A stretch of 19,929 nt of DNA from an uncultured archaeon (lineage in GTDB: Archaea > Asgardarchaeota > Lokiarchaeia > Sigyniarchaeales > SOKP01). Shown piece after piece: positions 8,898-13,253 of this stretch. Every line of letters begins with the position of its first letter. Within the stretch, counting starts at the first letter, position 1. The notes below the pieces were generated by a model. The model was not told where the DNA came from and searched no databases. It saw only the letters and a list, made by a program, of their open reading frames with translations. Location of the stretch: assembly GCA_964583985.1 (NCBI GenBank), contig CAZOYD010000063.1:1-19929 (forward strand). The letters are read 5' to 3'. The position numbers and the translations under genes are program-made.

Positions 8898-9995
8898 ATG
8901 AGTCAAGTTGAAGAACAAAATTTCGTCGTAGGGATCTTTGGAGATAATTTCGAACTAAGGCAACTCATAGGACAATCCTTAGGTGCTCCGGGTACAAAAA
9001 GCGATCTGCTTTTTTTTAATCGCTTAGATATAGCATTAAATCACGTGTTTTGTGCCATAACCCCTGTTGATTATCCTGACAAAATTAAGCCATTTTTACA
9101 AGCATTATCTATTTCGAACATCCATATATTAGTAATCGACCTCGAAAACGGCTTGAATGCCACCATAGGGGAAATTCTCGTTGGTCTGGATTTATATCAC
9201 AGTTTATTTAACACTAAAGTTTTAGCTGTTATAGATAACATCAATTCCAAGACGGAGTGGAAATTAGCTGAAATCAAAGCAAAACTTACGACCATCCTAA
9301 AAACAACAAGTCTAAATGATACGGAAATCATCGAAATTAGGCATAAAGAAGATTATGCCAAGTTGAAAATGAAGATTGTTGAATTAGGCTCAGAGATAAA
9401 AGAACCCCCTTCTATAAATAATGTCAAAACTAAAGTGTTAATAGACCATGCTTTTCCTGTGAAAGGAATCGGAACTGTAATATTAGGTGTAGTTAAAGAA
9501 GGAACTATTTCTGCAGGGCAAATGGTAGAGATCGTCGGGTATGAGGACATGAATAGGAAAGTTATAATTAGGAGCATTCAAAAACAGGATAGGGTGTTTA
9601 AAACTGCCCAAGTTGGAGATAGAGTGGGATTAGCTCTTAAAGGAAACATTTCACCCGAGGATGTAGACCGTGGCAATCTAATCGCAAGTCAAGGGATGTT
9701 TGTGAACGAAAAAAAAATAAATGCCATCGTCCAAGTTAATAAATTTTATGTTCCTAACGGAGGTACTGTAAAACCTTCTGATGGGATTCAATATTTTGGA
9801 ATGGTAGACCTTAAAATGTCTCCATTAAAATTCGAATCAGGAGAAGAAATTAAACCCGGAGCGTCAGGAAATGTCGTGCTTCACTTTGAAAAAAAGCTTT
9901 ATCATGATGGAACGGGTCTTAAAGGTATTATTACAGAACTTAATAAATTTAATGGTAAATTAAGAATCCTTGGATTTTTCCATCAAGTAATGTAG
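8898..9995 (+). CDS. Archaeal SelB-like translation factor (aSelBL) with degenerate G domain
   Basis: EF-Tu/SelB domain II signature IDHAFPVKGIGTVILG...IRSIQ...GDRVGLALKG. The N-terminus is shortened, lacks an intact GxxxxGKT P-loop and has GAPGTKSD and YPDKIKP, as in aSelBL. Confidence 0.82.
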   Translation: MSQVEEQNFVVGIFGDNFELRQLIGQSLGAPGTKSDLLFFNRLDIALNHVFCAITPVDYPDKIKPFLQALSISNIHILVIDLENGLNATIGEILVGLDLYHSLFNTKVLAVIDNINSKTEWKLAEIKAKLTTILKTTSLNDTEIIEIRHKEDYAKLKMKIVELGSEIKEPPSINNVKTKVLIDHAFPVKGIGTVILGVVKEGTISAGQMVEIVGYEDMNRKVIIRSIQKQDRVFKTAQVGDRVGLALKGNISPEDVDRGNLIASQGMFVNEKKINAIVQVNKFYVPNGGTVKPSDGIQYFGMVDLKMSPLKFESGEEIKPGASGNVVLHFEKKLYHDGTGLKGIITELNKFNGKLRILGFFHQVM

Positions 9996-10013: not shown

Positions 10014-10937
10014 TTAGCTCGAATAAGATCTTAGTAAATTTAGTACAATTTGATTCACCAATTTCTCTATGACTTCTTTATTAAAAGTTTGAGAAGCACA
10101 AACTAACGAGTCAAGGTTTTTTAATTTTATGAATAATTTCTTTTGGATCATTCTTAAAAATTTATCTTGTAAATAGATCAAATAAGGTTCTCCATCTTTA
10201 TATTCTTGAGCTTTGTCGACTTTTGTAATGTGATAATATATCCTGTAGGATTCATAGATCAAGTTTACATCAAAATCCTTAGTTTTTGATTGTACGATTA
10301 TATTTTTATTCTTATCTGTCAAAAAGCATATAGACTCTGAATAAAGTTCGAGATTTCGATCCAGAATCTCTTTCAATACAAGAGTTTCTTTTGAGAGGCT
10401 ACTTAATATTTGTGATATTGCGTCTTGAAGGCTATATAAATAATTCTCTGCAATACTGGTAAAATAGATATCTGGTTTTACAGGAAGATTGATAATATTT
10501 TGAATTTGAAGCGTGAATATCCTTAGATTATTTCTTATTTCCTCGGGAATCAAATCAATTTTATGAAATAAAACTATAAATTTCGGATTTTGACCATCAC
10601 TTGTTGCAATCTTATAGATCTCACTGATTTCATCGCTAATTTCTAATGAAAAGTTATGCCAGAGATTATAATCTAGTATGTATATTACCGCATCAACACT
10701 CCTAAAAACATATAGGGTTTCTTTTTCATCTATTATTAGATTAGCTAGTTCTTGACCGGATGTATCAAATATAGTTAATTCTAAATCTAACCATAAATAA
10801 TTATGAGTTTCTATTCCTCGAGTAGGCTGAAGAGCAGTTCCTAACATGGTTTTAGGATCCATTCCTTCGAAAATTATGTCCTTTACGGTAGTCTTGCCTA
10901 CTCCCGCCCTACCTAAAAAAAGCAATTTTTTAGCCAT
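10014..10937 (-). CDS. Rag/Gtr1-like small GTPase with C-terminal roadblock-like domain
   Basis: G1 GRAGVGKT, G2 PTRG, G3 DTSGQ, and the Rag-diagnostic G4 HKID and G5 TSI. A ~120-aa C-terminal alpha/beta region (ICFLTDKNKNIIV) resembles roadblock. Confidence 0.88.
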   Translation of the reverse strand: MAKKLLFLGRAGVGKTTVKDIIFEGMDPKTMLGTALQPTRGIETHNYLWLDLELTIFDTSGQELANLIIDEKETLYVFRSVDAVIYILDYNLWHNFSLEISDEISEIYKIATSDGQNPKFIVLFHKIDLIPEEIRNNLRIFTLQIQNIINLPVKPDIYFTSIAENYLYSLQDAISQILSSLSKETLVLKEILDRNLELYSESICFLTDKNKNIIVQSKTKDFDVNLIYESYRIYYHITKVDKAQEYKDGEPYLIYLQDKFLRMIQKKLFIKLKNLDSLVCASQTFNKEVIEKLVNQIVLNLLRSYSS

Positions 10938-11174
10938 GATGAATTACTTCCTTCAAATTATCATTTTTAATGATGAAAGAAATATCGAAAAACTATCCAA
11001 TACAATAGTCATTTTTCTCTTATTTAAATTTAAATAGTAGAATGCTAAAGTTTCTCTCTTAATGAAATTTAGACAATAGTTAATTTCTATCTTTTTTTTG
11101 CCTGAAAGAATATTAAATTAGTAGATTATCTTTAAATTATATATATAATAGAATAAATCTCTACTCACGCAGAG

Positions 11175-11226
11175 TATTTCATCAAATAAACCTCCACAGT
11201 GGTTTTTTTATTTGAATCATTAAATA
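11175..11226 (-). promoter_or_regulatory. Putative eukaryote/Lokiarchaeota-type SECIS element in the 3' UTR
   Basis: Minus strand reads UAUU-UA-AUGA-U-UCAAAUAAA-AAAA-CCACUGUGGAGG-UUUAUUUGA-U-GA-AAUA. It shows an AUGA/GA core, a U.U pair, a perfect 9-bp stem, unpaired apical adenines, a possible CCA/UGG mini-stem and a short lower helix UAUU/AAUA. AUGA begins 13 nt after the TAA of a gene with an in-frame TGA. Confidence 0.72.
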
Positions 11227-11233
11227 AGATTTA

Positions 11234-12160
11234 TTATTCATTGCAATCAATTGATTCAAACGAATTTATTTTGATGAAGGCTTCCTCTTGTTTATTTCGT
11301 TGTTCTGATTTAACAGATCTATTCACTTGTGATAAATATTTCATCGCATTAGTTTTCCCATTAATTATATTCTCAATTAATTCTTCTTTACTGAGACCTC
11401 CAGAGATGACAAGAGCGGTTTGAAAAGACTGATCCGGTTCTAAAGTTTTGAATTTAATTTGTAACGCAGATAAAATTTCTCCTGGTTTGCCATAAAGTGT
11501 ATTTGAAAGATTTAATTTTTCAGTATTAATATTAAAATCCTTAGTTAGACACGTTTCATAATTCGTTGATTTGGAGATAGGAGAAAATCCCGCATGAAGT
11601 CCAGTATCGTCAAATTGATATAACACATCGTGTTCTTCATCATAACCGGAAGAATCATTATCGAACCCATCCAATCCATTGATATCGAAATCAAATACGA
11701 AATACATCGAAAATTCTGTTAAATTATAGTCAGAAATGTTTTTTAAGGTAAAGAATGTGTTTATGTAAGGTATTTTTGGTTTATTAAAGATATCGATATA
11801 AAGTCTAATCAGAGAATGTTCTTTCTTAAACTCTTGTTTAAGTATTTTTTTTTCACTCATCAATTTCTTCAAGTATTCCTTAATGTCAAAATCAAGGGTG
11901 ATTCTATTAATAAAAGTGCCAATTCGAGTGTTAACCATTTTGTAGATAGGTGTAGGTTCGATATTTTTTAGAACCACTGGAATTGTCCCGATATTTTTAC
12001 CAATTAATTTAAAACTAAACCAAGGACCAGCCATTTCTTGTTCTGTTAAATAGAGTATGTATTTGTTCATGTATGTTATTTCTTTAATTGAAAACCCCAT
12101 CAAATATCCAGCAGTATTTCAAGTTGCTAAAATTTCGTTGAAACTAACCTTTAATACTAT
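11234..12160 (-). CDS. Hypothetical beta-rich protein; candidate selenoprotein (in-frame TGA at 12121-12119; ORF-track version is 11234..12103)
   Basis: The 289-aa ORF is solid. The frame continues upstream as (I/M)VLKVSFNEILAT-TGA-NTAGYLMGFS to an ATA at 12160, which lies 9 nt downstream of SD AGGAGGT. A SECIS-like hairpin follows the stop. The extended protein would be 308 aa. Confidence 0.7.
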
Positions 12161-12169
12161 TTTTAAAAG

Positions 12170-12177
12170 ACCTCCTT
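12170..12177 (-). promoter_or_regulatory. Strong Shine-Dalgarno sequence (AAGGAGGT)
   Basis: Plus-strand acctcctt. It is spaced for a start at about 12160, not for the TTG/ATG at 12103/12100. Confidence 0.7.
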
Positions 12178-12275: not shown

Positions 12276-13253
12276 CTAAACCTTTTCAATGAATCGATAA
12301 GCTATGTATAAGAAGGCTTCGTTGACATTTTCTCCACTTTTTGCACTTGTCATAATAAAATGAAATCCATACCGTTTTGCGATGTTTTTAATATCCTCTT
12401 CTGATGATACAATCTCATCTTTTAAATCGGATTTATTTGCTACTATTACCATGGGAATGTTTGAAGGTACAGCCTTTTTAATGTCATCATACCAATTATC
12501 AATACTCACGAGATTATTAAGTCTAGTTCGATCGACGACAATAAAAGCACCACTTGCTCCTTCATAAAATCTCTTGCGATATGGACTCATTGCGATTGAT
12601 TGGCCTCCAATATCCCAAATTACAAAATTTAAGGTCGTTTCTTCTCCCATAACAATGGTTTTTTTAGTTATATCAACTCCAATGGTGCTAATGTAAGTAT
12701 CGGTAAAATTATTTTCAACAAATCGTTTGATGAGTGAAGTTTTTCCTACTTGATAATCACCAGTTAAAATAATTTTCGAAGTGAAAATTCCTTTAGGTAA
12801 TTTACCCCCTCGAGTTTTGGATAAAACCTTAATAATTTCAGGAATTTCTATAGAGATGCTTTCATGACCCTCTAAAAGCAATTCTATTTTCCCTGCAATA
12901 TGCTCTGAAAACACTCTCAGTTCAATATCTGGGGTATTTGGATCTGCAATGGTAGTTAAAATTGAATGAGGCCCCATACTACAATAGGCAAACTTCTTAT
13001 CGGCCATGGAGGTAACATTAAAAAAGTTATTTTGTGTTTGGTATTCCGTCTTAATTCTATCAATGTAGATATCTAAAAATGCTGAAATAGCTCCTATAAC
13101 TAAATCTGTATCTTGTTCATCCTTCATTTTACTCTCAGATGCGATGATAAATCCATCTCGGTCACATATAGCAACCGCAGCAGCTCCATCAACATTAAAC
13201 ATATAATTCTCAAGTATTTTTTTTAAAAGATCGATATTTGGGAGATTCTCCAC
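12276..13253 (-). CDS. Roadblock/LC7-like domain fused to a Rab-like small GTPase
   Basis: N-terminal NVDGAAAVAICDRDGFIIAS roadblock signature. The C-terminal GTPase has G1 GDYQVGKTS, switch I YISTIGVD, G3 WDIGGQ, RFYEGA, G4 NKSD and G5 TSAK. GTG start with a GAGGG SD. Confidence 0.92.
   Translation of the reverse strand: MENLPNIDLLKKILENYMFNVDGAAAVAICDRDGFIIASESKMKDEQDTDLVIGAISAFLDIYIDRIKTEYQTQNNFFNVTSMADKKFAYCSMGPHSILTTIADPNTPDIELRVFSEHIAGKIELLLEGHESISIEIPEIIKVLSKTRGGKLPKGIFTSKIILTGDYQVGKTSLIKRFVENNFTDTYISTIGVDITKKTIVMGEETTLNFVIWDIGGQSIAMSPYRKRFYEGASGAFIVVDRTRLNNLVSIDNWYDDIKKAVPSNIPMVIVANKSDLKDEIVSSEEDIKNIAKRYGFHFIMTSAKSGENVNEAFLYIAYRFIEKV

Follow-up and report, generated by a model that had tools for sequence, protein, structure and literature searches.

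Does a hairpin on the minus strand, just behind the stop codon of a gene annotated as a hypothetical protein, act as a selenocysteine-insertion signal (SECIS), and which protein would such a signal serve? The question is raised by the window, a stretch of 19,929 nt (contig C63) from a lokiarchaeial genome of 3.8 Mb, 138 contigs, and 31.7% G+C, whose genes include GTPases of the Roadblock-Ras and Gtr1/RagA types. Very probably, the hairpin is a genuine SECIS, one of the eukaryote-like elements known from Lokiarchaeia, and we consider it highly probable that the element functions as an Asgard (Loki-type, eukaryote-like) SECIS of type II, similar to that of SelD, co-transcribed as part of the 3′ UTR of a 308-codon gene (12160-11234, minus strand). 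Eukaryote-like elements have been known in Lokiarchaeia since 2016, and both lokiSECIS and type-II elements have been described (Mariotti et al., 2016, PMC4989117; Huang et al., 2024, PMC11227280); the "eukaryote-type" label of the original prediction is therefore not new in itself. The RNA is of a published kind, and it is the attached selenoprotein family that appears to be undescribed.

Architecture and conservation of the element

The element occupies positions 11155-11232 of the minus strand (78 nt, with both strands of the closing helix included) and begins 13 nt behind the TAA of the upstream gene. It is composed of four helices: the closing or lower helix P1, the upper stem P2 standing over an AUGA-U/U-GA core, a ministem atop P2, and a hairpin on the 3′ side called P3. 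P1 is formed by AAAUCU (11227-11232) and AGAUUU (11155-11160), and in the window copy it can be extended to 10 bp (11235-11226 with 11161-11152), where it overlaps the stop codon. The 5′ half of the core, A-AUGA-U (11216-11221, with AUGA at 11220-11217), places U11216 opposite U11181 of the 3′ half, U-GA (11179-11181, with GA at 11180-11179). In P2, UCAAAUAAA (11207-11215) pairs with UUUAUUUGA (11182-11190) over nine perfect base pairs. The apical region of 16 nt (11191-11206) opens with AAAA (11206-11203), continues with CCA (11202-11200) and UGG (11196-11194) around CUG, and closes with AGG. P3 (11163-11175), as predicted by RNAalifold, consists of ACUC (11175-11172), the loop UGCGU, and GAGU (11166-11163).

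The core, the perfect stem, and the AAAA run with its CCA-CUG-UGG ministem had all been proposed in the original prediction, which placed the stem at exactly these minus-strand positions; each of them holds up, the two helices also in the orthologues, where the stem covaries and the ministem keeps its complementarity across varying sequences. RNAfold and covariance analysis, suggested there as a check, likewise gave a positive result: RNAfold predicts both hairpins in a 96-nt stretch (−19.5 kcal/mol, z = −2.79, a fold equalled by 1 of 200 shuffles), and all four helices carry compensatory changes among the orthologues.

Orthologues of the upstream ORF are found in 32 of the 35 other genomes of the genus, with 67-90% amino-acid identity, and the 3′ flanks compared are those of 32 same-genus loci, the window's own included. 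The mean pairwise identity of the element is 76%, vs 36% for the next 80 nt and 50% for the third codon positions of the gene; as judged from the alignment, the element is under purifying, strong structural selection. A stem conserved without its core had been named beforehand as the pattern that would speak for a terminator or stability hairpin, and the opposite was found: AUGA and the 3′ GA are invariant in 32/32 orthologues. The base 5′ of AUGA is A or G, the spacer U.U is replaced by G.U in one genome and by U.G in another, and U11222, which could pair with A11178, is invariant in the 32-locus alignment.

The helices vary in sequence and keep their pairing. P1 is present as a helix of 6-10 bp in 32/32 loci, vs 4.6 bp for shuffled flanks, and is built from at least five sequence types (AAAUCU/AGAUUU, AAGUCC/GGACUU, AAACC/GGUUU, UUCAUUCC/GGAAUGAA, and UAUCC/GGAUA), with two-sided changes at all six pairs. 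P2, mostly 8 bp long in the orthologues, pairs in 100% of its cells and shows compensatory double changes at 4/8 pairs, for instance UCAGGUAA/UUACCUGA at locus L008 and UCAAAUUU/AAAUUUGA at locus L019. The A-run at the start of the loop is kept in all orthologues. The ministem stays complementary through the variants CCA/UGG, UCC/GGA, CCC/GGG, UCAA/UUGA, and CCU/AGG, with 82% of its cells paired in a model-guided alignment in which some rows are misaligned. P3, with the consensus CUC-NGCGN-GAG, is paired in 92.7% of its cells, and its closing pair covaries among AU, GU, GC, and UA. Over the whole model-guided alignment, pairing extends to 92.9% of cells, and double changes are seen at 12 of 21 pairs. 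These counts overstate independence because the orthologues are close kin and the changes are not independent events, but the pattern they form is unambiguous. None of 500 shuffles reached the observed values of pairing and covariation, and with the 3′ partners shifted by one to three columns, the pairing fell to 27-53%.

The lower part of the element differs from the original prediction, in which a weak helix UAUU/AAUA closed the core and overlapped a second small hairpin at 11176-11162, so that the two folds might compete. The UAUU/AAUA helix exists in this copy and is not conserved in orthologues, the true lower helix being P1, and the idea of competing folds was dropped for that reason. 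The second hairpin itself is present, as P3, where it forms a conserved arm of a three-way junction that also occurs in SelD elements. A covariance model of the element itself (R1) matched 11153-11233 with 90.6 bits as the sole strong match in the genome, the further matches in the genome being weak (18-28 bits) with unconvincing folds; the full sequence family is thus specific to this gene.

The upstream gene and its UGA codon

Under translation table 11, the gene appears as an ORF of 289 aa (11234-12103) that opens six codons past an in-frame TGA. The frame is best read, from the alignments described below, as a gene of 308 codons (11234-12160, minus strand; 308 aa) with a putative ATA start at 12160-12158, UGA (Sec) as codon 14 at 12121-12119, and TAA at 11236-11234. 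A Shine-Dalgarno sequence, AAGGAGGU (12170-12177, minus strand), stands 9 nt before the ATA, and GGAGGT is kept upstream in the orthologues. The proposed start is a non-canonical ATA, a point against the SECIS reading; it aligns with the ATG of the Cys-containing homologues, each 13 codons before the U/C position, and two orthologues have TTG and ATC, respectively, in its place.

The in-frame UGA is conserved at 30 orthologous loci and, in addition, at L051 and L052. The frame around it encodes the conserved peptide (I)VLKVxFNEILAT-U-NxxGYLMGFSIKE, in which the substitutions among orthologues are of the amino-acid type (F/W, N/H, E/D, I/V, and L/F). Seven homologues from one other family of the order, three single-contig genomes among them, have no stop in frame and carry cysteine in the motif M-x-[IV]-x-[IV]-D-[FY]-E-T-[IV]-C-x-x-C-K-E-K-G-Y, where the UGA aligns with the second Cys of CxxC. 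Similarly, three homologues from a further family contain CxxU with an in-frame TGA (...F-D-Y-V-C-x-x-U-K...), and the UGA of the window aligns with their U. In an alignment of 20 sequences, position 14 (U or C) is an invariant column, as is C306, which lies 3-4 residues from the C-terminus.

The element and the codon go together: the element stands behind 32/32 UGA forms of the genus, and neither R1 nor a loose pattern scan detected it at any of the seven Cys-form loci. SepSecS and a Sec-containing SelD are present in the checked genomes of the two other families, so the Cys forms are not explained by loss of the Sec trait. No AUGA..GA element was found within 430-500 nt behind the three CxxU homologues, and the Sec forms of this protein family thus do not all use an element of the candidate type. 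The three CxxU forms (L044, L045, and L046) end in ...EC, followed at once by a conserved, covarying hairpin, (C/A)CCAAG-UWGCC-CUUGG(G/U).

The genome of the window has, on the evidence of its gene content, a full Sec machinery, comprising tRNA-Sec, SepSecS, a candidate EFSec, and a Sec-containing SelD. The tRNA-Sec scores 59 bits against an Rfam cut-off of 47, the SepSecS gene (466.7 bits) directly adjoins it, and a candidate ORF of 485 aa of the SelB/EFSec type is located on the same contig; the SelD gene contains one in-frame TGA.

The probable SECIS places the gene, which every annotation gives as a truncated "hypothetical protein", in a selenoprotein family. Its database relatives are all called "hypothetical protein", the nearest of them being labelled Promethearchaeota or Lokiarchaeota archaeon; the listed entries are 260-289 aa long and cover 84-94% of the query, from which it follows that they were called from after the UGA.

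Relation to known SECIS elements and alternative readings

The published lokiSECIS consists of AUGA, 9 bp, an 11-nt loop of the form AAAAA..AG, and GA (Mariotti et al., 2016). A genome-wide pattern scan, another check proposed with the original prediction, was run with a strict pattern (ATGA, a spacer of 0-1 nt, at least 9 perfect bp, a loop of 8-20 nt starting with AAA, and GA) and returned eight matches in the 3.8-Mb genome vs a mean of 0.5 in eight first-order Markov simulations. Of these, at least three immediately follow genes recognisable as those of selenoproteins, namely VhuD/FrhD genes on C11 and C13 (with CLKUGYG...VVGU motifs) and an FrhA-like gene on C43, and with slightly looser settings, a canonical element was also found behind a PrxL-like gene with WUNRU on C77. 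The canonical elements behind the VhuD/FrhD, PrxL-like, and FrhA-like genes indicate that this genome uses the published lokiSECIS. The strict matches at C37:23304, C6:26251, and C10:7403 have no obvious TGA-containing gene directly upstream, and may be chance matches or further unrecognised SECIS elements; the copy at C10:7403 is laid out like the candidate, with a U.U spacer and a 16-nt loop.

The candidate shares with the type-I lokiSECIS of HdrA-VhuD, VhuU/FrhA, and PrxL genes the AUGA/GA flanking a stem of approximately 9 bp, the A-rich start of the loop, the G as the last loop base, and the place near the stop codon. Type I, however, has a fixed 9-bp stem directly flanked by AUGA/GA without a spacer and an 11-nt loop ending in (A)G, whereas the candidate departs from this pattern in its U.U spacer, its 16-nt apical region with a ministem, and the additional helices P1 and P3.

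The candidate agrees in every feature with the type-II eSECIS-like model, which specifies GA_[G/A]A, with lengths of 7-15 bp for the upper stem and 2-8 bp for the ministem, and with 4-12 nt in the bulge and 2-6 nt in the apical loop (Huang et al., 2024). The core 5′-(A/G)UGA...(G/A)A-3′ is represented by AUGA (11220-11217) and GA (11180-11179), the upper stem (7-15 bp with at most two mismatches) by nine perfect base pairs, the ministem and bulge by CCA/UGG around CUG with AAAA plus AGG, and the unpaired adenines by AAAA (11206-11203); the required 3′ UTR location is seen in its place 13 nt past the TAA of a gene whose in-frame UGA aligns to Cys.

The original prediction had compared the layout with a form-2 eukaryotic SECIS rather than the GAA/A type of methanogens, and the type-II ministem layout bears this out. 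Form-2 eukaryotic SECIS and the candidate have in common the AUGA/GA quartet-type core, a non-Watson-Crick N.N pair by helix II, unpaired adenines, a ministem, and the 3′ UTR location, but helix II is shorter in the candidate and helix I is interrupted by P3. The Rfam SECIS families gave no match at the gathering score or at E values up to 10, and no other Rfam family gave a meaningful one; by those models, the element resembles a eukaryotic SECIS without being a member. The euryarchaeal (methanogen) SECIS is similar in its 3′ UTR location and presumably in its dependence on an archaeal EFSec, and differs in having the asymmetric GAA_A bulge, a GC-rich lower stem of 10 bp, and a GC upper stem of 3 bp, which are all absent from the candidate.

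The closest counterpart is found behind SelD, for which type-II elements have been reported (Mariotti et al., 2016; Huang et al., 2024). For SelD, 3′ UTRs from 28 genomes of the genus were analysed by RNAalifold, which gave a closing helix, AAUGA-N, a 6-bp stem carrying UAAAA and a ministem, N-GA, and a second hairpin directly adjoining the 3′ strand of that helix, with 11/16 pairs covarying. The order of parts (P1, core with P2, P3) is common to the candidate and the SelD elements, and single-sequence folds of the SelD elements of two other families in the order have, by inspection, the same three-arm layout. The candidate thus has the features of the SelD/SPS-type lokiSECIS (AUGA..GA separated from the stem by one base on either side, unpaired adenines, a ministem, and a place just after the stop) and, in comparison with the 28 SelD loci, also the closing helix P1 and the hairpin P3 between the 3′ GA and P1. 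It differs in its longer upper stem (8-9 bp vs 6 bp in SelD), in the unrelated sequences of P1, P3, and the ministem, and in serving another, unlisted gene family. In the text of the two lokiSECIS papers, neither a three-way junction nor a P3-type hairpin was found mentioned.

A covariance model built from the 28 SelD elements alone (R2) had the candidate as its top match in the window, with 26.2 bits and E 4e-4 (filters off), the next match scoring 11.9 bits, and its alignment runs in register through P1, AAUGA, P2, UGA, and P3. A filtered R2 search of the whole genome listed only SelD itself and not the candidate, so this test is positive and not overwhelming. The SelD-type SECIS is not private to SelD, as its closing helix, K-turn arm with ministem, and 3′ hairpin can also serve another gene. 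The idea that the SelD-type element is tied to a UGA near the start codon was rejected, since VhuD, which is served by type I, also has U near its N-terminus. Six SelD loci (L061, L063, L064, L073, L078, and L083) have UUGA in place of AUGA in the 5′ core (e.g., CUUUGAUAUAAGC), a variant absent from those named in the available text of Huang et al. (2024).

Among other explanations, the one that survives best takes the element as a conserved K-turn or three-way-junction structure of the 3′ UTR that binds an L7Ae-family protein and acts, without relation to Sec, in the stability, localisation, or translational control of the mRNA, with the upstream TGA as a true stop in a conserved 5′ leader. 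The AUGAU/UGA core is indeed identical in sequence to that of box C/D-type K-turns. A leader of this kind is, however, hard to reconcile with a pre-TGA region that shows conservative substitutions and lines up with coding sequence at the N-termini of the Cys homologues, where an invariant Cys faces the U, and the distribution of the element (all 32 UGA forms, none of the seven Cys forms) and the same architecture behind SelD, an established selenoprotein gene, also make this explanation improbable.

A transcription terminator or a hairpin stabilising the 3′ end of the upstream gene is very improbable and was rejected. Such a structure would suit the position 13 nt past the stop and the stability of the hairpins, which is high for AT-rich DNA (z = −2.79), but no T-run follows the element, the sole UUU sitting within the 3′ strand of P1. 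Moreover, the invariant unpaired AUGA, GA, and A-run and the four-helix architecture common to the SelD element are not needed for stability. Least probable is a small box C/D-like guide RNA gene placed behind the ORF by chance, which was rejected since, despite AAUGAUU resembling box C and UGAUGA resembling box C′, the defining combination of RUGAUGA and CUGA with single-stranded guides is missing: no conserved CUGA (box D or D′) occurs in the 32-sequence alignment, the would-be guides are mutually paired and covary as helices, and Rfam scans returned no snoRNA or sRNA family. The SECIS reading, on the other side, is supported by the invariant core with covarying stems, the UGA-to-Cys alignment, the Sec machinery, the SelD-like architecture, and the match of the model built from SelD alone.

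Proposed mechanism and proposed selenoprotein family

The SECIS would fold as a three-way junction in which the base of P2 forms a K-turn-like core and its tip presents the unpaired adenines and the ministem. The sequence is compatible with a K-turn motif, having an (A/G)AU bulge, GA/GA, and the U.U pair, and the core would contain the sheared pairs G11218.A11179 and A11217.G11180 together with U11216.U11181. P1 and P3 probably set the geometry of this core as a three-way junction, which would resemble the arrangements known as "k-junctions". The core would recruit EFSec with Sec-tRNA(Sec), either directly or through a putative K-turn-binding protein, a route considered here because SBP2 is not known in Asgard archaea (Mariotti et al., 2016; Huang et al., 2024). 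The UGA of codon 14, approximately 900 nt upstream, would then be read as selenocysteine and not as a stop. Beside that of the SelD elements, the candidate provides another, independent alignment from which the features recognised by the archaeal Sec apparatus can be defined.

The protein itself has no match in Pfam or NCBIfam for any of the 20 family members. An AlphaFold2 model built from the 20-sequence alignment is confident and mostly beta (pLDDT 88, pTM 0.87), and in Foldseek, it resembles the N-terminal beta-supersandwich domains of GH94 cellobiose phosphorylase, GH116, and GH15, with E values down to 4e-8 and TM scores of approximately 0.5 on the query. A protein-language look-up gave the same weak beta-supersandwich lead and placed the table-11 ORF with clusters of Asgard hypothetical proteins. 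The predicted fold is a beta-sandwich that is not of the thioredoxin type, with Sec14 closing a short N-terminal strand of the model and Cys306 lying in its C-terminal tail.

The gene directly upstream (12276-13253, minus strand) encodes a Roadblock/LC7-Ras fusion GTPase, which is a neighbour in 28/30 loci of the genus and in 6/7 Cys-form loci. This conserved neighbourhood suggests that the GTPase and the beta-sandwich protein form a functional pair. The predicted Sec site is unusual in belonging to a beta-sandwich protein that is not of the thioredoxin type and whose gene is linked to that of a eukaryote-like small GTPase. The neighbourhood of the downstream gene of the Gtr1/RagA type (10014-10937) is not conserved. 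A broader reading, which we offer as speculative and rather unlikely as a whole, would combine these points: the candidate and its SelD counterpart would constitute a "junction" class of their own among Asgard SECIS elements, where the P1/P3 three-way junction takes the place of the lower helix of the K-turn, and the gene would encode a new Asgard-specific selenoprotein, with a beta-supersandwich like the N-domain of GH94/GH116, Sec14, and an invariant C-terminal Cys, that acts as a redox-sensitive partner of the upstream Roadblock-Ras-like GTPase.

A 2026 review counts 11 archaeal selenoprotein families, nine of which are named in its text; it gives SelD, FrhA, the MvhA/VhuA/VhuU group, FrhD, HdrA, and FdhA, and describes Prx-like, AhpF-N-like, and DsbA-like proteins as exclusive to Asgard archaea (PMC13188914). 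The family of the window gene is absent from the families listed there, and a full-text literature search for novel Asgard selenoproteins returned nothing matching. The family appears undescribed on the grounds that it has neither detectable similarity to any Pfam or NCBIfam model, those of the listed families included, nor a match in the literature. What the element exposes is therefore a selenoprotein family outside that list, which is conserved, limited to Asgard archaea in database searches, and cut at the UGA in public annotation. Published selenoproteome surveys are homology-based, and surveys of this design would miss the family of the window gene.

Two further observations concern the Sec trait of this genome. 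At C52:7964-8200 (plus strand; locus L098:365-600), an ORF of 66 codons encodes an N-terminal membrane helix followed by NPIDEGGG-U-GC with an in-frame TGA, and its terminal TGA is directly followed by a canonical lokiSECIS (AUGA, 9 bp, AAAAAUGAUGG, GA). The ORF, its in-frame TGA, and the SECIS are kept in two other genomes of the genus, with a compensatory change from C-G to U-A in the stem, and the ORF is probably, from these features, another unannotated small selenoprotein. In addition, the window contains at 8898-9995 (plus strand) a gene for a protein of 365 aa, approximately 1.2 kb from the SECIS and convergent with the Rag-type GTPase gene. Its best NCBIfam match is SelB (TIGR00475) with 81 bits, far below the cut-off; EF-Tu domain 2 is present and the N-terminal G domain looks degenerate, and the protein may be a putative SelB-like paralogue.
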